A DNA stretch of 64,000 nt from a virus: IMG/VR virus record IMGVR_UViG_3300035169_000077, positions 1 to 64,000 of that record. The stretch is one strand, 5' to 3'. A program made the position numbers and the translations under genes. This document shows, one piece after another, positions 10,940 through 53,971 of the stretch; position 1 is the stretch's first letter, and each line of letters begins with the position of its first letter. A model generated the notes under the pieces. It made no database searches. It was not told the DNA's origin and saw only the letters and a program-made list of their open reading frames with translations.

Positions 10940-12811
10940 GTGGACGTGCCCGGCTTCAACGATGACGAGTTCACCGAGCTTTACGACGCGACGTTCCCGC
11001 GCGTGGACCTGGTCGGCAAGGCGGCGAACGGGATGCGGTTCCTGATCGCCAAGGAAGCCGATGAGAGCACCCCGGCGGGCATCCTCGGCGCGGACGTCGT
11101 CCGGAGCCTGATCGCCAAGGGAGAGGACGGCGACATGACCACTGCCCGCGAAAGGCAGCCGCTCCCGAACGGGATCACCCTGTCCGGCTCCCCGGCCCAG
11201 ATCGCCGCGTTCATCCACGCCGCGTCCGTCCGCAAGGCCGGCCCGGCCCCGGACCTCCCCGACAACGCCGACGGCTCCCCCGGGGACCCCGTCAGTAAGG
11301 ACGCAGCCATGGGACCTGAGCTTGACGGAGACCCGGACGCGATGGACTCCATGGACGTCACCGTCCCCCTCGCCGAACCGGAAGACATGGCACCCGGTGA
11401 CCCCGCCGACCCCGGCTCGCCCGCATGGGAGAGCATCGACGCGGCCTCCGCCCAGAAGTGGCTGTCCATCGCCGCGCGGCTGAAGAACGCCCTGTGCGTC
11501 CTGGCCGAGCGGGAGATGGTTGAGGCCGCCTCCGCCGACCCGGACGACATCGAGAACGCCTGGAACCTCGAAGACGCCATGTGCGCCGTCGACTACGCCA
11601 TCGAGCAGCTCGCCGTGTTCGCCGCCTGCGAGCAGGCCGAGGCCGAGCTGGGCGCCGAGATGGAAGCGATCGGCAAGGCGCTCGCCTCCTTCGACACCGC
11701 GCCGCTCGGCGTCATCGAGGGCCTGTCGGCCGTGCGGAAGGCCGGGCGTGTCCTGTCGTCGGCGAACGAGGCCGCGATCCGCGCTGCCGCCGAGTCGCTC
11801 CAGAAAGTCCTCGCCTCACTACCCGAGGCACCCATCGCCAAGGAGGGGGCAGCCATGCCCGCAACCACTGCAGCCAAGGCCCCCGCGACGGTGGCGAAGG
11901 AAACGGCCACGCCGGAAGCGCAGGCAGCCAGCACAGGCCCCGTGAACGCTGGCGGGACGACCGGGATGGGCGAGCCGCGCAAGACCGGCCCCGCCGAGTC
12001 CCTGCCCGCCGACGGCCCGCAGGCGGCCAAGCCAGGCGACGTCCCGGGCCGGACAGTGGTCAAGTCCGCGCTCAAGGTCGTCGTCTGGGACCGCTCCGGG
12101 CGCGCGTGCCAGGCGGACCCGGCCTCGATCCGGCAGCAGATCGCCAAGGCCGACGGGGACGGCGAGGGCAAGGTCACCATGCAGGCCGTCTTCGACGAGA
12201 ACGGCAACCTCGTGGGCATCGTCGACCCCGCCGACATCACCCCGGTAGCCGGGGCAGGGGGCAAGCCTGACGCCGATGAGGGCGAGCCGCAGGCAGGCCC
12301 TGCCGCAGCGGCGGCGGATGACATGACCCCCCAGCCGCCCGCCGAGGCCGGCACCCCCGCAGAAGACGTCGCCAAGTCCGGGACACCGGCTGGCGCGAGC
12401 ACCACCACCATCACCCTGGACGTGCTCAAGAGCATCATGCGCGAGACCGTGGCAGAGCAGATCGGCGCGCTGCGCCCCGCAGAGGATGCCGCGAACACCG
12501 CCGGCATCGCGGGGCTCAGCGCAGAGGTCGAGACGCTCAAGGCCCAGCTCGCCGTGGTGGCAGAGCACCCGGCGATGCCGAAGGTGTTCACCCACGGGGC
12601 GGTCCCGCCCCGCGGTGACGGGCCGGTCCCCCCGGCGCACCAGATGCGCGGACAGGACCACGGGGCGCCCATCATCGACGTGGCCAAGGCCAGGGCGATG
12701 AAGCAGCGCATGTACACGGCGGACCCCGCCGAGGCCAACGCGATCGCGACCGAGCTGAACCAGTCGGCCATCGCGACCCTTGAGGCCATCCACAGCGTGC
12801 GCCGCCAGTAG
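10940..12811 (+). CDS. capsid scaffolding/assembly protein
   Basis: RVDLVGKAANG.RFLIAK N-terminus, acidic low-complexity body with coiled coils, directly upstream of the MCP; start re-picked. Confidence 0.7.
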   Translation: MDVPGFNDDEFTELYDATFPRVDLVGKAANGMRFLIAKEADESTPAGILGADVVRSLIAKGEDGDMTTARERQPLPNGITLSGSPAQIAAFIHAASVRKAGPAPDLPDNADGSPGDPVSKDAAMGPELDGDPDAMDSMDVTVPLAEPEDMAPGDPADPGSPAWESIDAASAQKWLSIAARLKNALCVLAEREMVEAASADPDDIENAWNLEDAMCAVDYAIEQLAVFAACEQAEAELGAEMEAIGKALASFDTAPLGVIEGLSAVRKAGRVLSSANEAAIRAAAESLQKVLASLPEAPIAKEGAAMPATTAAKAPATVAKETATPEAQAASTGPVNAGGTTGMGEPRKTGPAESLPADGPQAAKPGDVPGRTVVKSALKVVVWDRSGRACQADPASIRQQIAKADGDGEGKVTMQAVFDENGNLVGIVDPADITPVAGAGGKPDADEGEPQAGPAAAAADDMTPQPPAEAGTPAEDVAKSGTPAGASTTTITLDVLKSIMRETVAEQIGALRPAEDAANTAGIAGLSAEVETLKAQLAVVAEHPAMPKVFTHGAVPPRGDGPVPPAHQMRGQDHGAPIIDVAKARAMKQRMYTADPAEANAIATELNQSAIATLEAIHSVRRQ

Positions 12812-40112: not shown

Positions 40113-40135
40113 CCCGCCAGCCTAGGGCTACCTCG

Positions 40136-40242
40136 CAGGCCGGGCGGGACTTGAACGCCGCTCCTCAGGGCCTGGGCCGCCTCCGCTAGCGCGCTATCGC
40201 TCGGGCGCGGTTACCTGCGCTCTGCCGTTGAGCTACCGGCCT
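40136..40242 (-). ncRNA. tRNA-like RNA with expanded anticodon arm
   Basis: AGGCCGG/CCGGCCT acceptor stem, TA-GCTC-AACGGCA-GAGC D arm, GTTCAAGTC T loop; 44 nt between CAGG and CCTG; TAGGGT 6 nt upstream. Confidence 0.7.
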
Positions 40243-40710: not shown

Positions 40711-42093
40711 TTGACCTCACTCGTTTACGTCACCATCACGGGCCAGTTCCTCGGCGGCGATGAGACGCCCCTCTCCGGAACGGTGACCTTCACCGCAAGC
40801 CAGGCTGTCTACTCGGCAGGCCAGGAGATCGTCACCCCTGATGTCCCGGTCGCCGCGCAGATCACGGACGGCGTCCTCCTGGCCGAGTCGGGCGGCGCGC
40901 TGCAGCTGCTCGCGACGGACCAGAGCGGCCTGACGTTCCTGACCTTGAGCGGGTTCTTCTACTGGACCGTGCGGGTAGTGGCCGGCGGAGTCACTGAGCC
41001 GTCATGGTCGTTCGGCCTGCCGTCGTCGCCATCGAGCGTCGACTTGTTCGCCCTCGCGAACAGGCCCTTCACCGCAGGCGGCGTCACCTCGGTCACGGCA
41101 GCGGACACCTCGGTTGTCATCGGGGGAACGGGCACGGCCCCGACGGTGCGGACGGGCACGCTGGACGTGATCGCCACCCAGCATGCGCCGGCGGGTAACT
41201 GGTCGAACAACAGCCACAAGATCACGTCGCTGGCAAACGGGGCCTCCGCGCAGGACGCGGCGGCGTTCGGGCAGGTCCCCACCTCAGCGGGGAGCATCGG
41301 CGGCCTCCTCGCCGCAAGCAACCTCTCCGACGTCGCCAATGCCGGCACGGCCCGGACCAACCTGGGCCTGGGCAGCGCGGCGACTCAGGCTAGCAGCGCG
41401 TTCGACGCGGCCGGGGCGGCCTCCGCAGTGCTGGCGCTTGCCGCGCTGCGCGCCAATAACCTGTCGGACCTGGCCAGCGCGCCGACGGCCCGGACCAACC
41501 TGGGCCTCGGCGGGGCGGCCGTGATCGGCGTCCCGGTCTCCATCGCCAACGGCGGCACCGGGCAGACTGCCCAGCAGGCGGCACTCGACGCGCTCGCGGG
41601 AGCGGTCACCACGGCCCAGTTCCTGCGGGGCAACGGCACGCACGTCGTACTGGGCGCGATCCAGGCCACCGACGTCCCCACCCTCAACCAGAGCACCACG
41701 GGGACGGCCGCCAACTTCACCGGCGGGGCGACCGTGCCCGCCTATGTGGCCCCGCACGTGGCGACGCTCACCGACGCGGCGACGGTCGCGGTCAACGCGG
41801 CCCTCGGCAACGACTACCGGCTCCTCACCACGAGCGGGGTAGGCGCATCGCGGACAATCGGCGCACCCTCTAGCCCGGTCGACGGGCAGGCCATCACGAT
41901 CGACGTCCAGCAGGCATCCAGCGGGGGCCCGTACACGGTCACCTGGGCATCAGGGGCGGGCGGCTACTCGTTCGGCACCGACGGCGCGCCGACGCTGAGC
42001 ACCGGTGCTAACGCGGTCGACACGATCGGCTTCCGCTACCACGCCGGCCTCGGCAAGTGGATATGCCTCGGGTGGAAATTGGGATTCGCGTGA
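40711..42093 (+). CDS. fibre-like virion protein
   Basis: GGGAGG RBS; NLSD...ARTNLGLG twice, KITSLANG...QDAA, SIANGGTG; TLTDAATV..NA C-terminal module. Confidence 0.75.
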   Translation: MTSLVYVTITGQFLGGDETPLSGTVTFTASQAVYSAGQEIVTPDVPVAAQITDGVLLAESGGALQLLATDQSGLTFLTLSGFFYWTVRVVAGGVTEPSWSFGLPSSPSSVDLFALANRPFTAGGVTSVTAADTSVVIGGTGTAPTVRTGTLDVIATQHAPAGNWSNNSHKITSLANGASAQDAAAFGQVPTSAGSIGGLLAASNLSDVANAGTARTNLGLGSAATQASSAFDAAGAASAVLALAALRANNLSDLASAPTARTNLGLGGAAVIGVPVSIANGGTGQTAQQAALDALAGAVTTAQFLRGNGTHVVLGAIQATDVPTLNQSTTGTAANFTGGATVPAYVAPHVATLTDAATVAVNAALGNDYRLLTTSGVGASRTIGAPSSPVDGQAITIDVQQASSGGPYTVTWASGAGGYSFGTDGAPTLSTGANAVDTIGFRYHAGLGKWICLGWKLGFA

Positions 42094-42791
42094 CGATCAG
42101 CTTCCCCGCGACCAGCGGCGACCACAGCGTCACGGCGGAGGCGAATCCGCTGGTGATCGCGCCGCCGGCGAATGTCGCCAACGGCGACTTGCTCGTCGCA
42201 TGGGTCATCGCCAGGACCGGGATCAGCAGCGCGCCGGGCAGCTGGACGGCGCTGCAGTCGTTCACCACCAACGGGACGTTCGCGGCGTACTCGCTGAAGG
42301 TCCCGACCGCGTCGGCGCTGCCCGCTAACTGGACGTGGACCCCGGCGTCGGCGCGGGCGAGCGTGATCATCCAGCGGGTGACCGGCACCGACCTCACCGC
42401 CTCCGTCACCGTCGGCGGGACCTGCGGGGCGGGCACTGACGCCGGGTTCGGGACGACGTACTCGTCATTCCTGCCGATGCAGCTGCCCGGCATCACGCCA
42501 CCGGACGCGTGGGCCGCCTGCGTCGGGACGTTCTTCACCGGGGACGCCAACACTCCCTCGGCGGACCTCGTGCCGGGCGGGACGCTGCTGGCGACGGCGA
42601 CGACCACGAGCGCCGGGGCTGGCCGGTCGTCGTCGGGGATCTACGGCGCTGTCGCGGCCGGGCCGACCGGCACGATCGTGTGCGCGAACGACTGGCCGGG
42701 CGCGCCCGGCGGCCAGGACGGCATCCTGCTCGGCTTCACCGCCGTGCGCGCCCCCGTGAAGAGCGGGCTGCTGATGGCGGGGGTCATATGA
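42090..42791 (+). CDS. fibre-associated beta-sandwich protein
   Basis: P.NV.NGDLLVA, P..WT pattern; coupled. Confidence 0.6.
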   Translation: MTISFPATSGDHSVTAEANPLVIAPPANVANGDLLVAWVIARTGISSAPGSWTALQSFTTNGTFAAYSLKVPTASALPANWTWTPASARASVIIQRVTGTDLTASVTVGGTCGAGTDAGFGTTYSSFLPMQLPGITPPDAWAACVGTFFTGDANTPSADLVPGGTLLATATTTSAGAGRSSSGIYGAVAAGPTGTIVCANDWPGAPGGQDGILLGFTAVRAPVKSGLLMAGVI

Positions 42792-45328
42792 CGAGCCTGT
42801 CGTACGTCACGATCACTGGCCAGTTCACCGGGGGCGGCAACACGCCCCTGTCGGGCAGCGTGACCTTCACGCCGAGTCAGGCTGTCTACGCCGGGGGCGT
42901 CCCCGTCGTCACTCCCGGGGTGCCGATTACCGCCCAGGTGATCGCCGGGCAGCTGTTGTCCGAGCACGGGGGGCCGCTCCGGCTCCTGGCGACCGACAAC
43001 GACGGCCTGACCTTCCTGACCCTGACGGGCTTTTTCTGGTGGTCGGTTGAGGCGGTCATCGGCGGCGTCACTCAGCCGGCGTGGTCTTTCGGCTTGCCTT
43101 CCAGCCCGACAAGCGTCGACTTGTTCGCCCTCGCGAACACGCCCTTCGGTGGAGGCGGCGGCGGCAACCTCCCGCCCGCGATCATCACCTCCAGCGGCCC
43201 CCTTGGCCCTGAGTCAACGGCGATCCTCGCCGCCCCCGGCCTGACCGTCTCGCTGCCCGACGCGACCGCGGCACCGGGCAGGGCGATCACGGTCAAGCTC
43301 GACTCGCCGTTCACCACCGGGACGGTCGAGACGATCAACGGGCAGCTCATCGACGGCTACCCCTCGTACCAGATGGCCGCCCGGTACCAGTGGTGCACGC
43401 TCCAGTCGGACGGGACCAACTGGCAGGTCATCAGCGCCAAGCCCGGCGGCCTCCTGAGCATCCCCGTGCCAGTGCTGCCGGCCGGGACCGCCAACGCGCC
43501 GTACAGCGCCCAGCTCACGGCCAGCGGCGGGTGGCCCGGGTACACGTGGAGCGTCAAGTCAGGGAGCCTGCCCGACGGCGTGACCCTGTCCACCTCAGGC
43601 GCCCTCTCAGGCACCCCGACAGTGGCGACGACCAGCGGCTTTACCGTCCAGGTGACCGACTCGATCGGCTCCATCGCGACGATCGCCCTGACTATCACGG
43701 TCGGCGGGGGCATCGTCCTCGTCCAGCAGGGCGCCGTGATTAACGCCTCGAACGGGGCCTCGGCGGCTCCCGTCTTCCTCAACGCCACCGCGGCCGGGAA
43801 CCTGCTCATCGCCCATGTCGGCGGCAACGGCTCCGGGGCCATCACCACGACCGCTTCCGGCTGGGTTGTCGTCGGCGCCGGCGGCCATGCGATCGCCTAC
43901 AAGGAGAACTGCGGGGCCGGCGAGACGCCTCCCGTCTTCTCTCGCGGCAGCACCAGCGACATGTGGGCGTACCTGGAGGAGTGGACCGGGGCCGCCACCT
44001 CAGGCGCGGCAGACCAGTCCGTGTCATCCTCCGCCGGGTCGTCGGCATGGACAGCGGTATTCCCGGCGCTGAGCACCGTGCCGGGGGAACTGCTGGCCTG
44101 CGCGGGCTACTGGAACGGCAGCAACACGGGCGGCAGCGTCGCGCTGACCAGCTTCCTCGACAACACCGGCGACACGATCACCGGCACGTTCCTCCAGGGC
44201 GGGAATAGCTTCGGCCAGTACTTCGCCGGGGTCTCCGGGGTCGCCGGCCCGACCGGCAGCACGCATGACCAGGTCGGGATGACCCTCAGTGTCTTCGCGG
44301 GCGGCGACGGCACCCTGGTCTCGTTCCAGCCCGGCAACCAGGGGCCGCCCGGGAACCCCGTCGTCACCACCGCGTCCCCGCTGCCATCAGCGTCCACGCT
44401 GCAGCCGTACACGGTGATCCTCGCCGCAGAAGACGGGGTCCCGCCCTACACGTGGTCGATCGCGTCCGGCACGCTCCCGGCAGGCCTCGCGCTCTCCGCG
44501 GACGGCGTCATCTCCGGCTCCCCCGTGACCGCCGCCGTGTACTCGTTCACCGTCCGGGTCACCGACAGCATCAGCGACTCCGGCACCATGCCGCTGGGCC
44601 TCACGGTCGCGCAGACTCCCACCCCGACGTTCGTGACGTCGGCCTTCACGGAGGCCACCGGAAGCCGCAGCCAGCCGTATCCCGGCATAGCCGCCATCAC
44701 CGGGCCCACTCAGGACCCGACCGTCAACAACAACGTGTGGTCGCCGGTGACCGGGACGGCGTCCGAGCTATTCGTGGTCGATCCCACCCGCTTCTGGGTA
44801 GTCGCCAACATGCCACCCGGGAACACTCAGGTGCTGGCATTCCAGAGCAATGACCTGCGGTTCGGCGAGTTGCCGCTCAGCAGCTTCACTAAGGTCGTCA
44901 GCTCGTTCAGCGAGGAAATGAACCCGACTCCCGGCACGCAAGCCTGGGCGGCCTATGACATCTGGCTGAATAACTGGAACAACGAGATCATGATCCATCA
45001 TGATCTCGCCAGGTTCAATCCTTACGACTCCACGCCCCTGGCCAGGGGAATCTCGTTCGGCGGGAGCAACGGCGTGCCAGTCCTGGCCTGGGACCTGCAC
45101 CTTTACGGCACCAGTGAATATGTCTGGCAGCCAGCGAATAACGCGTTCAATATCCAGTCGGGCAGCGTTGACATTTTGCAAATGCTTCAGTGGATGATTG
45201 ACAATGCGTTCCTGCCGGCGGTTAACACCTTCACGGCAGTCGGCTACGGCTGGGAGATGTGCAGCACCGGCGGCCTTGATGAATTCTTCCAGGTGACCGC
45301 TTTCACCCTTGACGCCGAGTACGGCTAA
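42788..45328 (+). CDS. modular fibre protein: anchor domain, two He_PIG Ig domains and a C-terminal GH12-like glycoside hydrolase
   Basis: LP......Y...L.A.GG..PYTWS...G.LP.G..LS..G..SG.P twice; VNNNVW, AAYDIW, NEIMI, SGSVDI, GYGWEM. Confidence 0.8.
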   Translation: MTSLSYVTITGQFTGGGNTPLSGSVTFTPSQAVYAGGVPVVTPGVPITAQVIAGQLLSEHGGPLRLLATDNDGLTFLTLTGFFWWSVEAVIGGVTQPAWSFGLPSSPTSVDLFALANTPFGGGGGGNLPPAIITSSGPLGPESTAILAAPGLTVSLPDATAAPGRAITVKLDSPFTTGTVETINGQLIDGYPSYQMAARYQWCTLQSDGTNWQVISAKPGGLLSIPVPVLPAGTANAPYSAQLTASGGWPGYTWSVKSGSLPDGVTLSTSGALSGTPTVATTSGFTVQVTDSIGSIATIALTITVGGGIVLVQQGAVINASNGASAAPVFLNATAAGNLLIAHVGGNGSGAITTTASGWVVVGAGGHAIAYKENCGAGETPPVFSRGSTSDMWAYLEEWTGAATSGAADQSVSSSAGSSAWTAVFPALSTVPGELLACAGYWNGSNTGGSVALTSFLDNTGDTITGTFLQGGNSFGQYFAGVSGVAGPTGSTHDQVGMTLSVFAGGDGTLVSFQPGNQGPPGNPVVTTASPLPSASTLQPYTVILAAEDGVPPYTWSIASGTLPAGLALSADGVISGSPVTAAVYSFTVRVTDSISDSGTMPLGLTVAQTPTPTFVTSAFTEATGSRSQPYPGIAAITGPTQDPTVNNNVWSPVTGTASELFVVDPTRFWVVANMPPGNTQVLAFQSNDLRFGELPLSSFTKVVSSFSEEMNPTPGTQAWAAYDIWLNNWNNEIMIHHDLARFNPYDSTPLARGISFGGSNGVPVLAWDLHLYGTSEYVWQPANNAFNIQSGSVDILQMLQWMIDNAFLPAVNTFTAVGYGWEMCSTGGLDEFFQVTAFTLDAEYG

Positions 45329-45446
45329 GCGGCCCGCTCCTCCCCCATCACCTGACCCCCCTCCCGCAAGTTACGGCGCCCTTAGCGCAACCACGGCCGC
45401 GCACCCGCGGCACGCCTGGCCAATTTCAACGAGAAGGAGAACCGTC

Positions 45447-45737
45447 ATGACCACTCCCGCCCCCGAGCCAACTTCCGCCCACGAGGGCTTCCTCGGCCAC
45501 GTCCGCGACTGGTTCGAGCGCGACATCGCCCCCGAGATCGCCGTCGTGAAGGCAGACCTGGAGAAGGTCAAGGCCCTCGCCCCCCAGCTGTCCAGCGTGG
45601 CGACCACGCTTGAGACGCTGGTGAAGGCCCTCGCGCCCAGTGCGGCCCCGGAAGTCGCCACGCTCGTCGAAGACGCGGAGAAGGCCGCCGCGATCATCGC
45701 GCGGATCGCGGCGGAGCTGGGCGCGGCCGGCCTGTAG
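45447..45737 (+). CDS. small helical protein
   Basis: GAAGGAG RBS. Confidence 0.65.
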   Translation: MTTPAPEPTSAHEGFLGHVRDWFERDIAPEIAVVKADLEKVKALAPQLSSVATTLETLVKALAPSAAPEVATLVEDAEKAAAIIARIAAELGAAGL

Positions 45738-45788
45738 GCTTTTGCCCGGCAGAGGCCACGCTCGGTTCCACGGGAGGCGCTGAGCAGC

Positions 45789-45832
45789 AGAGAGGCCCCG
45801 GTCACCTGTGGGTGGCCGGGGCCTCTCTTTTT
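45789..45832 (+). terminator. intrinsic terminator ending the late operon
   Basis: AGAGAGGCCCCGGTCACC-TGTG-GGTGGCCGGGGCCTCTCT followed by a T run. Confidence 0.85.
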
Positions 45833-45957
45833 GCGTTCCCGGGGTCCGGTGGCCCGGGCGGGGCGCGGCGGCGGGTGGCCAGGTCCCGCCCCGGGCTTCA
45901 GGTCGCCGCGCCCGGTTCAACGATAGGCTCTGTCCCGCTGCACGACGGGTAACACCG

Positions 45958-45991
45958 CGCCCCGCCCCTCAAGCGAGGGGCGGGGCGTTCT
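45958..45991. terminator. hairpin downstream of the CCA-enzyme gene
   Basis: CGCCCCGCCCCTC-AAGC-GAGGGGCGGGGCG. Confidence 0.7.
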
Positions 45992-45996
45992 TCGCG

Positions 45997-47364
45997 TTAT
46001 CCTCGCTCGGCCAGCCAGCGGAGCGCCCCGGCCTCATCCCCGAACTCCCCGGCATCCTGTGCCTCCAGGGCCTCGGCGAGGATGGGCTTGAACGACGGCC
46101 CCGGCTTCATCCCCGCCGCGATCAGGTGGTCCCCGGTCAGCAGTCCCTTCGCGGGGCGTTCCTCAACCTTCAGGTCCCGGCCCAGGTCGAACCACGCGCC
46201 TGCCGTGCTCCACGCGTCCGGGTCGCCGCGCCCCTTCGCGTCGGCCGCGCACACAAGCGCGAGTTCGGTCAGGGTCGCGGGCTCCAGCCTGCGCACCAGC
46301 CGCCGCACCGCCGGCTTCGTCGGCCGCCCGAAGCAGTTCATGTGCTCCCGGATCAGCGGGACGATGCGGGCGATGATGCCCTCAGGGCAGCCGATCGACC
46401 GGAGGAACGCCGTCGCAGGCTCTACGCCGGCCTCCGCGTGGCCATGGGAGGTGATCCGGCCCTCGGTGAGCTGGCTGTGAGTGACCTTGCCGACGTCGTG
46501 CAAGAGCGCGGCGAAGACGATGACCAGCCGGTCTGTTCCGGTCAGGCCCGCCTCATCGGCAAGCCGGGCAGCCTGGTCAGCGGCTAGCCCGGCGTGGGTC
46601 CACACGTCGCCCTCCGGGTGCCATTCGGGGTCCTGCTCGACGCCGTGCATGTACGCGAGTTCGGGGTAGCGCGCGTCCCACCAGGTGTCATGCAGGACCG
46701 CCAGCGCCCGGCTGACGTGCGTGCCGCGCGTGCCGATCTTCTCCCACTCGCCCCAGATGCGCTCGGCCGGCAGTTCCCGGTACGAGCCCAGGAGATCCCG
46801 GCACAAGATGGCCGTCTCGGGGACCATGGTGAAGCCGAACCGGGCCGCGAACTGGACGCCGCGCAGGACGCGCAGCGGGTCCTCGCTGAACGCGTCCGAC
46901 GTGTGGCGCAGGATCCCGGCCCGGATGTCGGCCAGGCCCCCGTGAGGGTCGATCAGCCCCCCCGTTGCCGGGTCGAGCATGATCGCGTTCATCGTGAAGT
47001 CCCGCCGGGCGCTTGCCTGGGCGAAGCTGATGTCCATGTCCGGCGAGACCTCGAAGCCCCGGTGGCCCGCGCTGACCTTCCGCTCGCGGCGGGGGACGTT
47101 GATGTCCAGGTCGGTGTCCCCGGCGCGGACCTTCAGCACGCCGTAGCTCTTGCCGACCTCATCCACGCGGCCTGCGCGGCTGAGGGCTTCCGTCAGCGCG
47201 GCGAACGTCAGGCCGTAGACCTCAACGTCAACGTCCTTGCTCTCGGCCCCGCCCATGAGGGCATCACGCACGAAGCCGCCTACGAGCAGCGGGTGGCCGC
47301 CAGCTTGGCGGATCGCGGCCAGCACTCGCTCAACGTCCGGCGACAGGCGGGGCAGCGTGATCAC
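45997..47364 (-). CDS. cca: CCA-adding enzyme (class II tRNA nucleotidyltransferase) with HD domain
   Basis: VGGFVRD, DVD, RRDFTMNAI, DP.GG..D, EDPLRVLR..QFAARFGF, ERIW.E..K, HPEGDVWTH, LLHDVGK, GHAE.G. Confidence 0.92.
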   Translation of the reverse strand: MITLPRLSPDVERVLAAIRQAGGHPLLVGGFVRDALMGGAESKDVDVEVYGLTFAALTEALSRAGRVDEVGKSYGVLKVRAGDTDLDINVPRRERKVSAGHRGFEVSPDMDISFAQASARRDFTMNAIMLDPATGGLIDPHGGLADIRAGILRHTSDAFSEDPLRVLRGVQFAARFGFTMVPETAILCRDLLGSYRELPAERIWGEWEKIGTRGTHVSRALAVLHDTWWDARYPELAYMHGVEQDPEWHPEGDVWTHAGLAADQAARLADEAGLTGTDRLVIVFAALLHDVGKVTHSQLTEGRITSHGHAEAGVEPATAFLRSIGCPEGIIARIVPLIREHMNCFGRPTKPAVRRLVRRLEPATLTELALVCAADAKGRGDPDAWSTAGAWFDLGRDLKVEERPAKGLLTGDHLIAAGMKPGPSFKPILAEALEAQDAGEFGDEAGALRWLAERG

Positions 47365-48074
47365 GGGCGGTCCCAGTAGGCGCGGCGGACTTCTTGCAGC
47401 CACGCCTCGGCGGCAGCCTCGTCCGGGCGATCCGGGAGCACGCCGGGCTTGTCGAATGCCTCCTCGGCGCGGGCGAGCACGTCCCTCGCCACCTCTACGC
47501 CCCGCGTGGCGACGTCCTCGCCGAACTCACGGCACGCCGCAGCCTGCGCAAGGCTCAGGCGCACGCTCAGCCGGCCGCTGACGTGCAGTGCCGTCCCCTG
47601 GTGGATCAGCCTCCACAGATGGCGGGCGTGCTTCTCGGTACGCTTCCTGGTGTCGGCCGAGAACGACCCGTCACCCCGGTTCTCCAGCCGGCGGAACTGC
47701 TGGGTGGCATACCCGAGGTAGGCGTTCCGGACCGCCGGCCGCGACAGGAGCGACTTGCGGATATCTACCAGCAGGTAACCCTCGCGCGTCGCCGTCTCGT
47801 ACCTGTCAAGCCACAGCAGCTCCGCGACGGTCGGATTGCACTTCAGGAGGAGCGCGGCCAGCTTTCCCGCCTCGTGGTACGTCGCGTCCGGCTTGGTGCT
47901 GACCCGGCTCGCGGCCTTCCCGAGCGGCGGGTGCAGCCCGTGGAACGCCACGGTGGGCGCGGCGTAGCAGCCGATCCGGTCCACGTCGGAGTCCTCGGTC
48001 GCCAGCCCGTATGCCGTTGAGCCGTTGATGCCCGCGAGGAGCACGTTCGGCGGCGGCTTCATCTCAGCGTCCAC
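47361..48074 (-). CDS. RlaP/YcgL-like Pol-beta nucleotidyltransferase
   Basis: GSTAYGLATEDSDVD, E..K...LLLKCNP.V.ELL, Y.GYA..Q, K.ARH..RL. Confidence 0.85.
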   Translation of the reverse strand: MDAEMKPPPNVLLAGINGSTAYGLATEDSDVDRIGCYAAPTVAFHGLHPPLGKAASRVSTKPDATYHEAGKLAALLLKCNPTVAELLWLDRYETATREGYLLVDIRKSLLSRPAVRNAYLGYATQQFRRLENRGDGSFSADTRKRTEKHARHLWRLIHQGTALHVSGRLSVRLSLAQAAACREFGEDVATRGVEVARDVLARAEEAFDKPGVLPDRPDEAAAEAWLQEVRRAYWDRP

Positions 48075-48256
48075 GCTTTCCCCTCTTCCGTCGCGCCCCG
48101 TCCCGCTTCCTGGCATGGTGCCCGGGTCGCGGGGCGGGGCGCACCTCGTTTTAGCCAGGGGCCTAACAGCGGCACTCCCGGTCGGCTAGTCTCCTCCTGC
48201 GTGAGTTGAATGCTCCCGGCCGCGTCCCACGCCACGGCCGGGCGCCTACCAGGCTT

Positions 48257-49099
48257 TTAGCCGGCGTTGACCTGGACGGCGGTTACCGTCAGGTCATCAA
48301 GGACGTAGGTGCCGGCACCCTGGTCGCTGTCGTAGCCGAACGCGTAAACGTGGAGCGTCGTGTCCTGCGCCAGCGTGACCACGGTCGACCCGCTGAAGTA
48401 GGAGTCGATCGTCGTGTGCCCTCCGGACTCCAGCGCCCCGCTTCCCACGTTGAGCAGGTCCCCGGTGAAGGACGAGTTCTTGGCCTCGTCGTAGGCGAAG
48501 AACTGGGGGAACACCTGCACGTCGCTGGTCATCAGCGGCGTCGCCTTGGCGGTCATGGACAGCAGGTAGGTGCCCGCCTTCAGGCTGACCGTCCCGACTT
48601 CCGTGGAGTTCGCGACGAACCCGCCGCCCGTGGCCACGCTCGCCACGCTGCCCAGGTCATGAGCGCCCGCGCTGACGACCCCGGACGGCCCTTGCGGTCC
48701 CGCCGCGCCGTCCGCCCCGTCCGCGCCAGCCGGGCCAGCCTGCCCCTGGCTGCCGGTTGCGCCAGCCGGTCCCTGCGCTCCTGCCGCCCCGGTCGCTCCC
48801 TTCGCCCCCGCGGGCCCTGCCGGCCCGGCCGAGTCCCACGCCAGCGCCGTCGTCCCCGCCGGGCACCCGCCCGACGCCTGGTAGTCCGCAGCGTGCCAGT
48901 ACACCCGGGTCAGCACCCGGGCGGACGGGGTACGCGAGTTCGCCACGCACCCGTACAACGTCGCCGACGTCGCCTTCGGCGGGGTGACCGCGCTCGTGCT
49001 CGCAGACGCCGCGGTCATCAGCCCGAACGCCGCAGCGCTCACCGCCACGCCCGTCACGACCGCTACGGCCCACGGCCGCCTGATCCATCCGACCCTCAT
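48257..49099 (-). CDS. secreted collagen-like protein
   Basis: Signal peptide ending ASA; about 16 G-X-Y triplets; beta-rich C-terminal domain. Confidence 0.8.
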   Translation of the reverse strand: MRVGWIRRPWAVAVVTGVAVSAAAFGLMTAASASTSAVTPPKATSATLYGCVANSRTPSARVLTRVYWHAADYQASGGCPAGTTALAWDSAGPAGPAGAKGATGAAGAQGPAGATGSQGQAGPAGADGADGAAGPQGPSGVVSAGAHDLGSVASVATGGGFVANSTEVGTVSLKAGTYLLSMTAKATPLMTSDVQVFPQFFAYDEAKNSSFTGDLLNVGSGALESGGHTTIDSYFSGSTVVTLAQDTTLHVYAFGYDSDQGAGTYVLDDLTVTAVQVNAG

Positions 49100-49124
49100 T
49101 GACTGCCCTTTCGTAGCCCCCGCC

Positions 49125-50060
49125 CTAGCGGCGGGGGAGGTTCACGCGGGCCGGGCTCTCGCGGTCGAAGATGCCGCCCTCAACCGCGTCAAGGCAGCGA
49201 CGGCACTTCTCCGCCCCCATCCCGATGACCGGCAGGACCGCCCCGTTGCCCGTCCGGTAGAACTGGTGCGAGATCCCGTTGCGGTGGTACGCCCCAGGCC
49301 CCGGGCACTCCGGCTCCGCCTGGCATTCGGTGCCGTCCACGTGCCGGACAACGTGACCGGGGCACGACAGCCGCCACCTGCGGCCCTCCGCAGCGGGAAC
49401 CCAGCGCTCCTCGTACGCCATCGCGGCAGACGGGCATGACCGGCCGCCCTTTGACCGCCGGCGAAGGTGGAACGCGGGAGGCGGGGCACCGGGAAGCAGC
49501 AGGTTCTCGCCCCCGAAGCTGACGGACTTGTGCCGGGAGGTGACCGGCTCCCCGCACGCCCAGCAGCACCCCGGCATGATCCCCTCAAGGCGGGCCATCT
49601 CCGCCGCGCCCTTGTCCAGCTCCCGCTTGATGTCAAGCTCCGGGCACGGCCACGGCTCCCCGCACTCACGGCACACCGGGTAGTGGGGGTGGAGGACGAA
49701 CACCCTCCGCCCCGCGTACGGGCGGACCTTCACGTGCCTGCGCTTCCCGCCGCTGGCCGGCACCACGATCAGGTACAGCGGGCGGCCGTCCCATTCCTCC
49801 TCGCTGCCGGGGTTCAGCCGGCCATCCGGGGGGAACGGCCTGCCTGCCCGCGCGGCCCTCGCCGCCCGGTCCCGCTCGGCCTCGTACCGCCCCCGGTCCG
49901 CCTCGTCCCAGTCGATGACCCGGACAAGCCGTGCCTCACGGACCACCCAGACCTTCCGGCCGTTGGCGACCAGGTCCCCGGGCTTCAGGTCGCGCCACTG
50001 ACGGTGCTCACCGCCCTGCGGCTCCCACATGTCACCGCGAGGTCCCCAGAAGACGCTCAC
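49125..50060 (-). CDS. Cys-rich hypothetical protein
   Basis: CRECGEPWPC, CWAC, further C/H pairs. Confidence 0.65.
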   Translation of the reverse strand: MSVFWGPRGDMWEPQGGEHRQWRDLKPGDLVANGRKVWVVREARLVRVIDWDEADRGRYEAERDRAARAARAGRPFPPDGRLNPGSEEEWDGRPLYLIVVPASGGKRRHVKVRPYAGRRVFVLHPHYPVCRECGEPWPCPELDIKRELDKGAAEMARLEGIMPGCCWACGEPVTSRHKSVSFGGENLLLPGAPPPAFHLRRRSKGGRSCPSAAMAYEERWVPAAEGRRWRLSCPGHVVRHVDGTECQAEPECPGPGAYHRNGISHQFYRTGNGAVLPVIGMGAEKCRRCLDAVEGGIFDRESPARVNLPRR

Positions 50061-50109
50061 CGCGAACGTCCCGTGAGCTGGGCGGCCAGCGCGGCCCAGG
50101 TGAGCGGGG

Positions 50110-50406
50110 TCACGCGGCGTCCTTGCGACGCCTCGGAGGCCGGGACTCCAGGACGGGAACGCTCTCGGCAGCCTGCGCCCTCCGTCGCGACGGAGGGCGG
50201 GACGAGAGCTGGCTTGACGGCTTGACCTCGTTCGCCCGCAGGTAGGCGAGCAGGTGCTCTGGCAGGAACACGGTGTCCCGCCCCACCTTGGAATGGCCGA
50301 TCCGGCCGGCGCGGGCCTCTTCCATCATCCACTCGCCGGACTTCCCGCCGAGGGCCTCCCCGGCGTCCTCCGGTGTGTAGATGATCGGGGGGCGCGTCTC
50401 GGTCAT
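50110..50406 (-). CDS. xis: excisionase-like HTH protein
   Basis: YTPEDAGEALG...ARAGRIGHSKVGR...F..EHL..YL; coupled to the cro-like gene. Confidence 0.75.
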   Translation of the reverse strand: MTETRPPIIYTPEDAGEALGGKSGEWMMEEARAGRIGHSKVGRDTVFLPEHLLAYLRANEVKPSSQLSSRPPSRRRAQAAESVPVLESRPPRRRKDAA

Positions 50407-50624
50407 GCCGCCACCGCCCAGTCCAGGGGAGCGGCGAGTATCCCGGCGAGGACGGCCATCTCGTCGCTCGGCACGGCGCGGCGGCCGGCCTCGACCTTCG
50501 ACACGGTGGGCTGCCACCACGGGTGCCCGGCACCGCGCATCTTGTCGGCTAGCTGCTCCTGCGTCAGCCCGGCTGCCTTCCGCAGCGCGGAGAGCCTGTC
50601 CCCGACGCGCTGTTCCTCGGTCAT
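50403..50624 (-). CDS. Cro-like XRE HTH regulator
   Basis: RLSALRKAAGLTQEQLA....W.QPTVSKVEAGRR. Confidence 0.85.
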   Translation of the reverse strand: MTEEQRVGDRLSALRKAAGLTQEQLADKMRGAGHPWWQPTVSKVEAGRRAVPSDEMAVLAGILAAPLDWAVAA

Positions 50625-50638
50625 GCCAGACATGATGC

Positions 50639-50715
50639 CATACCAATCCGGTATGCGATGCAAGACTCTTGGAGTCGCGACTGAAATGGTCGCGCGAGCA
50701 TACCGACTTGGTATA
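50639..50715. promoter_or_regulatory. immunity switch: two 17-bp operators and divergent leaderless promoters
   Basis: CATACC-aatcc-GGTATG (50639-50655) and CATACC-gactt-GGTATA (50699-50715); TATCGT+6 nt to GTG 50726. Confidence 0.75.
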
Positions 50716-50725
50716 TCGTCCGGGG

Positions 50726-51217
50726 GTGACCCCACCGCACCCCGACGTGCTCCGCATAGGCGAGAACGTCCGCATAGCCCGGGAGCGCAAGGGCCTGTCC
50801 CAGGCCGCGCTCGCCGAGGAGATGCGCGCCCGCGGCTTCACCGCATGGCAGCAGCCCGCCGTGTATAAGACCGAGAAGGGCGTCCGCGAGCCCAGCGGCC
50901 GGGAGATGGCAGCCCTCGCCGCGATCCTCGGCACCACGATTGAGCGGTTCTTCTGGCTCCAGGGGGAGGCCGCCGAGTCCGACGCCGCAGACGCCGCCAT
51001 CGTCGCCGTCCGCCAGTCATGGCAGGGCGCCTCCGACGCTGTCCTGCGCCTGGAGGCCGCGCTAGCCTCGGGTCGGCACCGGCTCGCGCAGGCGAAGGCC
51101 AGCAAGTACAAGCGGGTACGCGAGGTCGCCGGGGAGCTTGAGGCGGAACTCGGCGAGTCCACCCTGGAGGCCGCCGTAGGCGACGGCCTCGCCCGGCTCG
51201 AGGACGGGGACACCTGA
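50726..51217 (+). CDS. immunity repressor (XRE HTH)
   Basis: IGENVRIARERKGLSQAALA...W.QPAVYKTEKG.REP; divergent from cro and coupled to int. Confidence 0.85.
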   Translation: MTPPHPDVLRIGENVRIARERKGLSQAALAEEMRARGFTAWQQPAVYKTEKGVREPSGREMAALAAILGTTIERFFWLQGEAAESDAADAAIVAVRQSWQGASDAVLRLEAALASGRHRLAQAKASKYKRVREVAGELEAELGESTLEAAVGDGLARLEDGDT

Positions 51218-52890
51218 TGGGGTACGCGGAGCTCGTCCGGTCGCCGAGGGGGAACTACTGGCGCGCCCGGTTCAAGGGAGCGGACGGCAAGCTCGTGACC
51301 GTCGTTGACGAGGCCGGCGCCGTCCTCCGGTACGACGGGAAGCGCAAGGCCAAGAAGGCGGCAGACGACCGGGAGAAGGACGCCCGCCAGGGCCGGTGGC
51401 ATGACCCGGCAGCGGGGATGATGCTCGTCAAGCCGTGGGCGCAGGAATGGTACGCGGGCCTGAGCCTCGCGCCGAAGACCATGGCCAACATCAAGAGGCA
51501 CCTGGAGCATCACATCATCCCGTTCTTCGGCGAGGACGAGCTGAGAGCGGTCGACGCCGCGCGGATCGCCGAGTGGAAGGCGGAGGAGAAGGCCGCGGGG
51601 ATGTCGCCGAACAGCATCAGGACGTGGCACGGCACCCTGCACACGCTGCTAGAGGACGCCAGGCTGACCGGGAGGATCAGCGTCAACCCGGCGACGGCCA
51701 GGCGCGGCCGGGGACGGCGGGACGGCGGGGCGCGAAGGTCGCAGGTACAGCAGGAGCGCGTCATCACGTCACCCCTCGGCATCCTGCTGATCGCCGAGCG
51801 GATGTCGGTCCTGTCCGGCCGCGATGACGAGTTCGCCATGGTGGAGGCGGCCTACGGCTGCGCCCTGCGCCTCGGCGAGCTGACCGGCCTCGAGGTGCCG
51901 TCCGTCCGGGCGGGCGGCCTCAACCCCCGTAACCCGCTCCGCAAGGTCGCCGGCGAGCTGCGGGACGAGGCCATGCGAGTGGAATGGCAGCTTACCGAGG
52001 TTGAGGGGGAGCTGCTGCGGGAGCGGCCGAAGAACGGCTCCACCGGCGACCTTGACCTGCCCCCGTACCTGTCCCGGCTGATCGGGGAGCATGTTGCCGC
52101 GGCCGGCCCGCGGGAGTGCCCGTGCCACGGGACCGTCCACGCGTTCCGGGGGATGGGCGCGGCGAGCGCGAGGCCCGTGGTGCCCTTGCGGGTCGTCGCG
52201 GGGTACGCGGGCGTCTCGGAGGCCGCGGCGTACGTGGCGCTCGGCGGCAAGGGGCGGGTGTCGGACGCGACCCGCGAGAAGGTGGCGGCGGCGGCCCGGG
52301 AGGTCGGGTGGGTGCGGCCGGCGCGCCTGGACGGCCCGGCATGGCACTGGCGGCAGTCGGCGTTCGAGGCGATGTTCACCGCCGCGGTGTCGGGCTGGCT
52401 TCCGCCGGACGCGCCGCGCCCGCGCCGGCCGGTGCCGCTGGCGGGGGAGTGGCCCGGGACGCGGCTGCGCGGGCGCAACGCCCAGGGGCGGGCGTCGCTG
52501 CGGTGGGAGCCGGTCGCGGAGGGGATGACCCCGCACGGGCTGCGCCACTCGCTGAAGACCAGGATGGAGGAGGCCGGGATACCGGAGGTCGCCTCCGAGG
52601 CCCGGCTGCGGCACGAGATCCCCGGGGTGTCCGGCGCCTACCGGCACGTGACCCCCGAGATGCGCGCCCAGGTGACCCGGCTGCTACAACAGGACTGGGA
52701 GGCGGCGCTGGACGAGCGGCTCGCGATGTCGCCCCGGTCGCCCGTCGCGGTGCTCGGCCGGCTGCTCCAGGAGCGGGCTGAGGCCCGCAAGCCCCGCCTT
52801 GTCTCCAGTGCGTCTCCAGAAGCAGCAGGGCCGGCTTCCCTCCCGAGGGTGGAAACCGGCCCTGACCTGCGTCGGGGTGACTGGATTTGA
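51217..52890 (+). CDS. int: tyrosine integrase with an internal LacI-type HTH
   Basis: Catalytic residues R (ALRLGEL), K (PKNGS), HGLRH, RLRH, Y (AYRHV). Confidence 0.92.
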   Translation: MGYAELVRSPRGNYWRARFKGADGKLVTVVDEAGAVLRYDGKRKAKKAADDREKDARQGRWHDPAAGMMLVKPWAQEWYAGLSLAPKTMANIKRHLEHHIIPFFGEDELRAVDAARIAEWKAEEKAAGMSPNSIRTWHGTLHTLLEDARLTGRISVNPATARRGRGRRDGGARRSQVQQERVITSPLGILLIAERMSVLSGRDDEFAMVEAAYGCALRLGELTGLEVPSVRAGGLNPRNPLRKVAGELRDEAMRVEWQLTEVEGELLRERPKNGSTGDLDLPPYLSRLIGEHVAAAGPRECPCHGTVHAFRGMGAASARPVVPLRVVAGYAGVSEAAAYVALGGKGRVSDATREKVAAAAREVGWVRPARLDGPAWHWRQSAFEAMFTAAVSGWLPPDAPRPRRPVPLAGEWPGTRLRGRNAQGRASLRWEPVAEGMTPHGLRHSLKTRMEEAGIPEVASEARLRHEIPGVSGAYRHVTPEMRAQVTRLLQQDWEAALDERLAMSPRSPVAVLGRLLQERAEARKPRLVSSASPEAAGPASLPRVETGPDLRRGDWI

Positions 52891-52914
52891 ACCAGCGGCC
52901 TCTTCGTCCCGAAC
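52871..52914 (-). other. attP: attP core: 3' half of tRNA-Pro(CGG)
   Basis: Minus strand reads GTTCGGGACGAAGAGGCCGCTGGTTCAAATCCAGTCACCCCGAC; 5' half absent; overlaps the int stop. Confidence 0.85.
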
Positions 52915-53089
52915 AAGCCAGCCCGCCAATTTATGCTCCAGTGGTCGCGCAGGTCAAACCGTTGCGGTCTCGGATTCCAAGGTCGGGCAATAGGTGCCCG
53001 GCCCGTTTCAGCCTTCCCCGGCAGGCGTCGGCGGGGTAGCTGTCTCCAGGAATTCTCCAGAAAGGATGAGGCGAGAGTGGCGCGGGGGA

Positions 53090-53870: not shown

Positions 53871-53897
53871 GCGTGAACCGTTAACTGGGCGAATCCG

Positions 53898-53971
53898 TGG
53901 CGCGAGCCGGATTTGAACCGGCGACCTACGGGTTATGAGCCCGCCGAGCTACCGAGCTGCTCCATCGCGCT
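53898..53971 (-). tRNA. initiator tRNA-fMet(CAT), CCA not encoded
   Basis: Full cloverleaf; CTCATAA loop; GGG/CCC anticodon stem; A1xC72 mismatch; A11:U24. Confidence 0.92.

Follow-up and report, generated by a model that had tools for sequence, protein, structure and literature searches.

A mobile gene pair of RlaP and a CCA-adding/HD enzyme in an actinophage of temperate type: a candidate ligase-independent module for the repair of tRNA 3' tails

Introduction

What use has a phage for an RlaP-family nucleotidyltransferase coupled to a CCA-adding enzyme, when no RNA ligase is found in its genome? The question is raised by the virus record IMGVR_UViG_3300035169_000077 of IMG/VR, a linear sequence of 98,687 bp with 71% G+C and a CheckV completeness of 94%. 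The two genes lie next to each other on the minus strand in the first 64 kb of this 98.7-kb record, the stretch of 64,000 nucleotides that we analyzed and refer to as the window. A preliminary description, made from the letters of the window, had presented them as a tRNA end-repair module of a temperate phage, directed against toxins that trim, cut or block tRNA ends.

Iyer et al. (2021, PMC7824862) name RlaP and CCA-adding enzymes separately among the means by which phages replace missing RNA bases, and state that RlaP follows RNA ligases in its occurrence across jumbo phages. In the sole biochemical study of the RlaP family, a preprint, Pseudomonas RlaP added 1-2 nucleoside monophosphates (NMP) to the 3'-OH of RNA in a reaction that needs Mn2+, rejected 3'-phosphate ends and preferred the broken end of a cleaved tRNA (10.64898/2025.12.29.696909). 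The crystal structure of PfRlaP consists of a nucleotidyltransferase domain at the N-terminus and a helical domain at the C-terminus, whose last helix packs back.

Cleavage of tRNA tails is increasingly recognised as a widespread form of immunity. The HEPN toxin of a HEPN/MNT system takes 4 nucleotides off tRNA 3' ends (PMC11610964), and Cas12a3 trims 2-4 nucleotides, up to the discriminator base (PMC12851939). Phage-encoded tRNAs cannot evade such cutting because the CCA end is common to all tRNAs, as the authors of the Cas12a3 study point out, describing the mechanisms of viral resistance as unknown (PMC12851939). Over-expression of the CCA enzyme PcnA rescues Mycobacterium smegmatis from the end-extending toxin MenT3 (PMC11541572).

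In this work we analyzed the two genes, their relatives and the contexts in which they are found. We give an even chance to the reading that the pair is a mobile, ligase-independent repair module for tRNA 3' tails that acts on host tRNAs.

Results

Two intact and coupled genes

The RlaP gene lies in an open reading frame (ORF) that spans 47361..48116 on the minus strand. Its likely start is GTG 48074, giving a gene at 47361..48074 and a protein of 237 amino acids (aa), or ATG 48062, with ATG 48116 as a further alternative. The product is an RNA 3'-end type nucleotidyltransferase (NTase) of the RlaP family PF10127 (E 3.5e-18, 66.6 bits for a cut-off of 23) and matched phrog_388 (E 1e-24). The Pol-beta NTase motif G-S...D-x-D and the third carboxylate are present, and residues G18, S19, D30, D32 and D63 were invariant in an alignment of 59 sequences, that of the window included, with identities of 37-69%. 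The AlphaFold2 (AF2) model, with a predicted local distance difference test (pLDDT) of 96, shows a beta-sheet NTase domain and, after it, a helical domain. Foldseek returned only generic NTase folds for this model, with template modelling (TM) scores below 0.5, the nearest being KNTase and HalB, and a sequence search of the PDB gave no match. From its family assignment, the protein is predicted to add NMP to RNA 3' ends.

The second gene (45997..47364, minus strand) encodes a class II CCA-adding enzyme of the E. coli Cca type, 455 aa long and with a C-terminal HD phosphohydrolase domain. The NTase head domain was located by Pfam (PF01743, PolyA_pol head, E 2e-16, residues 40-166 of a 468-aa reading) and by alignment with E. 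coli Cca at 46906..47286 (minus strand), with the motifs GGFVRD, DVDVE and RRDFTMNA. The HD domain (PF01966, E 4e-10, residues 267-389; TIGR00277 HDIG) was located at 46237..46605 (minus strand), with the motifs WHPEGDVWTH, LLHDVGK, HGH and AADAKGR. Alignment with E. coli Cca extended over 381 aa with 33% identity (E 6e-44), the head motifs and HD residues being in register. The head motifs GGxVRD, DxD, RRD and EDPLRVLR are present and, like the HD residues H257, H289-D290, H309 and D375, were invariant in 24 relatives.

The protein also matched phrog_2244 (tRNA nucleotidyltransferase, E 3e-67) and was about 45% identical to cellular Cca enzymes of Verrucomicrobiota and Zetaproteobacteria. Its best NCBIfam model was PRK10885, 'multifunctional CCA addition/repair protein', with 192 bits for an equivalog cut-off of 451; TIGR02692 gave 130 bits for a cut-off of 439. 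The protein is therefore a member of the family and not a callable equivalog. Hundreds of metagenomic relatives with 65-93% identity were found, many on contigs of 100-145 kb.

The TGA stop of the RlaP gene (47361-47363) shares bases with the GTG start of the CCA gene (47362-47364) in a GTGA overlap (47361..47364, minus strand), and the two genes are translationally coupled as judged from this arrangement. The GTG start is supported by a public protein collection, since an identical 455-aa product is on record (P0001, 100% identity). Both ORFs, the overlap and the invariant residues bear out the earlier account of two GTGA-coupled genes with intact catalytic motifs.

A cassette shared by otherwise unrelated phages

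The record (G000) was compared with four other genomes that bear the pair (G001-G004, 92-100% complete, 108-132 kb). Their CCA proteins were 69-77% and their RlaP proteins 56-78% identical to those of the window. Beyond the pair, G001 shares with this phage structural genes only, and G002 the integrase/immunity region only. The resemblance of G003 is confined to weak matches to parts of the two tail-fibre genes, and that of G004 to weak matches of portal and capsid, at 22-26% identity. Gene order varied as well: RlaP preceded CCA at loci L003, L007, L008, L009 and L012, and CCA preceded RlaP at L011, L013, L014 and two contigs from metagenome-assembled genomes (L166 and L167), adjacency being retained. 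The pair is a mobile cassette that moves between otherwise unrelated phages, in both gene orders.

Some copies depart from the usual form. The CCA gene of G004 (90510-91998), a complete genome with direct terminal repeats, is split near its 5' end into two overlapping ORFs, either by a frameshift or by an assembly error. The RlaP of G002 (L259:5634-6818) and the protein P0124 are about 395 aa long; their N-terminal NTase half alone matches RlaP, about 250 aa of other sequence replace the helical domain, and both still adjoin a CCA gene.

The preliminary description had noted that no RNA ligase is visible in the window and had proposed to inspect the rest of the genome. Its observation extends to the whole 98.7-kb record, in which no match was found to the Pfam families RtcB, RNA_ligase, RNA_lig_T4_1, DNA_ligase_A_M and 2_5_RNA_ligase2, nor to the AAA_33 kinase family. 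Controls were silent in searches with PF09511 and PF25109, and local hidden Markov models (HMMs) with a positive control were used instead. These models, for the Rnl1-type ligase and for PNKP, were built from related actinophage loci; they detected neither protein in G000-G004 and gave 552 and 423 bits with the control G009. Taken together, the searches showed no Rnl1, Rnl2, RtcB, ATP-dependent ligase, 2'-5' ligase, AAA_33 kinase or PNKP in the record or in the four relatives.

Frequency and recurrence of the pairing

A survey of co-occurrence, also proposed at the outset, found RlaP within 6 kb of CCA at 14 of 80 CCA-anchored IMG/VR loci, as the immediate same-strand neighbour at 13 of them. 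Of 50,697 phage records, 150 had RlaP and 458 had CCA; against this background the adjacency is far beyond chance. The association extends to distant CCA genes (30-41% identity), which adjoin distant RlaP genes at L033, L046, L049, L073 and L081. The pair was also found on one Planctomycetota contig and in two Klenkia genomes, with the genes divergent. The Escherichia phage Av-05 (L277, 34292-41326) carries CCA, a weak PTH2-like ORF and RlaP (E 4e-13) on one strand within about 2 kb, the latter two being annotated as hypothetical proteins. Among isolated actinophages we found none that carries the pair.

On a quick IQ-TREE phylogeny of RlaP, at least 4 changes (gains or losses) were required to account for CCA pairing. 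Seven CCA-paired genes, that of the window among them, form a supported clade within a wider set of actinophage RlaPs that have other partners. Pairing recurs in at least four or five RlaP lineages, that of coliphage Av-05 included. Pairwise identities of RlaP and CCA were correlated over all pairs (r 0.86, Mantel p ~0.0005) and more weakly within the close clade (r 0.33, p 0.04), both values being inflated by shared ancestry.

Alternative partners of actinophage RlaP

We classed 91 unique RlaP loci by their partners within 6 kb, the neighbour calls resting on Pfam checks of selected ORFs in view of the shadow ORFs of high-GC DNA. RlaP was accompanied by an Rnl1-type ligase and PNKP at 15 loci, by a PNKP-like match only at 22 (about 13 of them strong) and by CCA at 14; the remaining 40 had no such partner. 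CCA together with ligase or PNKP was found at none of the 91 loci, a mutual exclusion that looks like alternative partners for one step. Cultured examples are the RlaP of Streptomyces phage Alone3, which adjoins a polynucleotide kinase, and that of Gordonia phage DatBoi, which adjoins an RNA ligase. Fusions of RlaP with the PNKP phosphatase domain (HAD_PNKP) but no kinase were found in P0196 (68% identity), P0242 and P0255, and point to a core chemistry in which the 3' end is dephosphorylated and then extended. The alternative partners, CCA/HD, PNKP plus ligase or a fused phosphatase, amount to a natural experiment on the modular assembly of RNA repair.

As in this phage, the RlaP of mycobacteriophage LeBron (gp32), which stands alone, is placed between the lysis genes and the integrase. 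RlaP being common in temperate actinophages, LeBron among them, the earlier statement that genes of this kind are mostly associated with large lytic phages was half right.

Few tRNA genes in pair-bearing phages

ARAGORN found no tRNA gene in G001, G002 and G004. G003 has a single one, a tRNA-Pro (TGG) at 12396-12470, about 270 bp from RlaP, and the present record has a tRNA-Met (53897-53971, minus strand). With 0-1 tRNA genes in the pair-bearing relatives, the substrates would have to be host RNAs, and the lack of any tRNA gene in three of the four argues against the maturation of phage tRNAs as the purpose of the pair.

The tRNA-Met is initiator-like: positions 1 and 72 are mismatched, and three G-C pairs form the foot of the anticodon stem. 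The preliminary description had stated that both tRNA-shaped RNAs of the window lack an encoded CCA. This stands for the tRNA-Met, in which CGG follows the discriminator A. The second RNA, a 'tRNA mimic' at 40135-40242 (minus strand), is itself weak: only relaxed ARAGORN settings call it, as a tRNA-Gly(ACC) with a 37-nt insert, and neither Rfam nor default ARAGORN gave a match. The missing CCA is no clue to function either, as only 13 of 45 tRNA genes of M. tuberculosis and 14 of 46 of M. smegmatis encode it (PMC11541572). The suggestion that the enzymes work with the phage fMet tRNA and the mimic is not supported, since both RNAs were searched for in the four relatives and are absent from all of them, three having no tRNA gene at all.

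The genomic neighbourhood

The record is reasonably regarded as a tailed, high-GC actinophage of temperate type. The label 'temperate', already given in the preliminary description, is based on a tyrosine integrase, divergent helix-turn-helix (HTH) repressor-like genes and an attP-like tRNA 3' fragment. The late genes on the plus strand end in tail-fibre genes (40711-45328). They converge with a leftward block of minus-strand genes on an 18-bp GC-rich hairpin (45789-45828), which is probably a two-way terminator. The first gene of the block encodes an XRE-type HTH repressor-like protein (50403-50735, minus strand) and is followed on the same strand by a phrog_26381 gene (49125-50060), a collagen-repeat gene (48257-49099), RlaP and, as the last gene, CCA/HD. 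The pair thus lies beside the immunity region on the strand of the repressor. The collagen-repeat protein has a hydrophobic N-terminus and matched tail-fibre PHROGs through its Gly-X-Y repeats alone. A sigma-70 promoter scan of 45300-51300 gave no match.

A second HTH gene lies to the right of the block, on the side of the integrase (51217-52890, plus strand). The integrase is unusually long (557 aa), with a LacI-type HTH match (residues 327-366) between its N-terminal SAM-like part and its catalytic C-terminus, and its whole length is conserved in G002 at 48%. Its 3' end is overlapped by a fragment resembling the 3' half of a tRNA (52883-52935, minus strand), with the T-arm GGTTCAAATCC and the acceptor 3' strand. 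This is probably an attP core matching a host tRNA gene; a search for a second copy within the record found none. We also considered that the tRNA-Met might be a host attB tRNA. This was rejected, because the record is that of a free phage, with the terminase at its start, and the att-like fragment lies elsewhere.

Discussion

A possible pathway for tail repair

The pair could act in four steps. A nuclease would first cut into the single-stranded tail of a tRNA, taking away all or part of the discriminator N73 and CCA and leaving an end with a 2',3'-cyclic phosphate or a 3'-phosphate. The phosphate would then be removed by the HD domain of the CCA enzyme; the HD domain of E. coli Cca is reported to remove such a phosphate. 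RlaP might next restore, without a template, the nucleotide or nucleotides that precede CCA, and the head domain of the CCA-adding enzyme would finally rebuild CCA. Damage of this kind is terminal and involves no sealing step, which would explain the absent ligase and 5'-kinase.

The division of labour proposed here suits what has been measured for RlaP. An enzyme that rejects 3'-phosphate ends needs a 3'-phosphatase upstream, and also a finisher downstream. Where RlaP adjoins a ligase, PNKP and Rnl1 would fill these roles; here the HD and head domains could do so, given damage to the tail. The discriminator base is beyond a CCA enzyme and within reach of an enzyme that adds 1-2 nucleotides. 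The general idea of tRNA-end repair as a counter-defence is plausible and fits the 1-2 NMP added by RlaP (10.64898/2025.12.29.696909); the part of the earlier proposal that involved phage tRNAs is not supported. What we infer is which RNA is the substrate, how the steps are ordered and which defence is countered.

The module might serve as a counter-defence during infection or protect a lysogen, in either case against tRNases that target the tail or toxins that block the end. Candidate targets would be HepT-type HEPN toxins, Cas12a3-like nucleases, acceptor-end tRNases of the contact-dependent inhibition (CDI)/colicin type and nucleotidyltransferases of the MenT type. We put forward tentatively, as a possibility that falls short of likely, that the cassette is a dedicated viral counter to immunity by tRNA-tail clipping, a ligase-free pathway of three activities in which RlaP restores the discriminator. 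If so, it would supply the 'yet unknown means of resistance' raised in the Cas12a3 paper (PMC12851939), and the rebuilding of N73 and CCA from a phosphorylated stump would make it a compact, mobile, two-gene viral resistance mechanism. RlaP would also gain a second physiological role, distinct from the filling of gaps before ligation, and its newly characterised activity would find a natural substrate that calls for no ligase. The pair is mainly of value as a concrete candidate, simple to assay, for a means by which viruses could resist the cleavage of tRNA tails.

Arguments against tail repair, and rival explanations

Several points weigh against a role in tail repair. Even in the case of E. 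coli Cca, the HD domain is not firmly known to dephosphorylate RNA ends as opposed to mononucleotides. The record is 94% complete, and the missing 6% could hide a ligase or PNKP gene; the host ligase RtcB could also still serve RlaP. RlaP is missing from the vicinity of 66 of the 80 phage CCA loci, and CCA from that of most RlaP loci, so that each enzyme can do without the other. The characterised RlaPs are all from Pseudomonas, lie in RtcB operons and show little NTP specificity (10.64898/2025.12.29.696909), which would make correct restoration of the discriminator inefficient. Finally, our literature search, which did not cover the founding RlaP paper, found no paper on a coupled, ligase-free RlaP-CCA/HD unit.

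The same scarcity of paired loci would suit two enzymes that work independently in a loose 'RNA maintenance' island, their coupling meaning co-expression only. The CCA enzyme would then boost CCA turnover, for example by removing 3' extensions of the MenT/AbiEii type through pyrophosphorolysis and re-addition, like PcnA, and RlaP would take part, together with RtcB or another host ligase, in the repair of anticodon loops. It agrees with this explanation that over-expression of PcnA alone counters MenT3 (PMC11541572) and that published models put RlaP ahead of a ligation step. Independent enzymes would not, however, be expected to stay adjacent through swaps of gene order and transfer of the cassette between unrelated phages, or to be paired anew in several RlaP lineages, and the mutually exclusive CCA and PNKP/ligase contexts are unlike those of unrelated neighbours. 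We consider this explanation rather unlikely.

It is improbable that the pair tails other RNAs, as a poly(A) polymerase with a tailing RlaP acting in transcript decay or on a signalling or primer RNA, or that it is a prophage defence system of the NTase-plus-HD kind. Sequence does not readily tell class II CCA enzymes from bacterial poly(A) polymerases, and the NCBIfam equivalog cut-off was not reached. The score of the CCA model, 192 bits versus 90 bits for PcnB, nevertheless favours a CCA enzyme over PcnB, as do the whole-length alignment with E. coli Cca and the identity with cellular Cca enzymes; bacterial poly(A) polymerases have, to our knowledge, no HD domain. A defence role is suggested by the position beside the immunity region on the repressor's strand and by the resemblance of the RlaP fold to HalB of the Hailong defence system, although the TM score is low (~0.46). 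PADLOC assigned RlaP to no defence system and gave, for the HD domain, Cas3-HD matches that were only marginal, and on this result the reading of the pair as a defence system was rejected.

That the pair matures or maintains the phage's own CCA-less tRNAs, as the tRNA-Met without encoded CCA and the tRNA-Pro close to RlaP in G003 might suggest, is very improbable and already largely refuted by the distribution of these RNAs among the relatives, the more so as the tRNA-like element is poorly supported and as actinobacteria, which have an essential CCA enzyme of their own, usually do not encode CCA in their tRNA genes (PMC11541572).

Comparison with known systems

If the pair repairs tRNA tails, it would be related to several known systems. 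Phage T4 repairs tRNA cut by the anticodon nuclease PrrC with Pnkp and Rnl1, and shares with the scheme proposed here the principle of healing and restoring, with phosphatase healing before restoration. The T4 ligase seals an internal break, whereas the presumed target here is the 3' tail and neither a kinase nor a ligase of the T4 type was found in this record or the four relatives.

The CCA/HD protein resembles the multifunctional Cca of E. coli (PRK10885) in domain order, head motifs and HD residues. Unlike E. coli Cca, it is phage-borne and coupled to RlaP. It also stays under the equivalog cut-off, and about 60 aa at its C-terminus form a conserved extension (LLTGDHLIAAGMxPGPxF).

Its partner belongs to the same PF10127 family as the RlaPs of known repair systems, namely Pseudomonas RtcB-RlaP-RtcA, phage RlaP with Pnkp and an Rnl-type ligase, and T4 NrdC.11, itself an RlaP. 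It shares with them the three catalytic aspartates and the predicted restoring of nucleotides lost at a damaged RNA 3' end, and its actinophage relatives at 40-60% identity adjoin an Rnl1-type ligase and PNKP. The present genome differs in that no ligase, kinase or PNKP was detected in it and no RNA ligase lies near RlaP; the partner is a CCA-adding/HD enzyme, and repair would consist of rebuilding a tail rather than sealing a break.

Both enzymes are also known from jumbo and rV5-like phages, and Av-05 has CCA, the PTH2-like gene and RlaP clustered on one strand. The phage described here is, in contrast, a temperate actinophage of about 100 kb without a ligase, in which the RlaP and CCA genes overlap directly, an intervening PTH2-like gene being absent. 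Judged from their sequences, RlaP and CCA/HD would form a variant of known phage RNA repair, to which the present analysis adds the absence of ligase and PNKP across genomes, the poverty of the relatives in tRNA genes, the mobility of the cassette and the alternative partners of RlaP.

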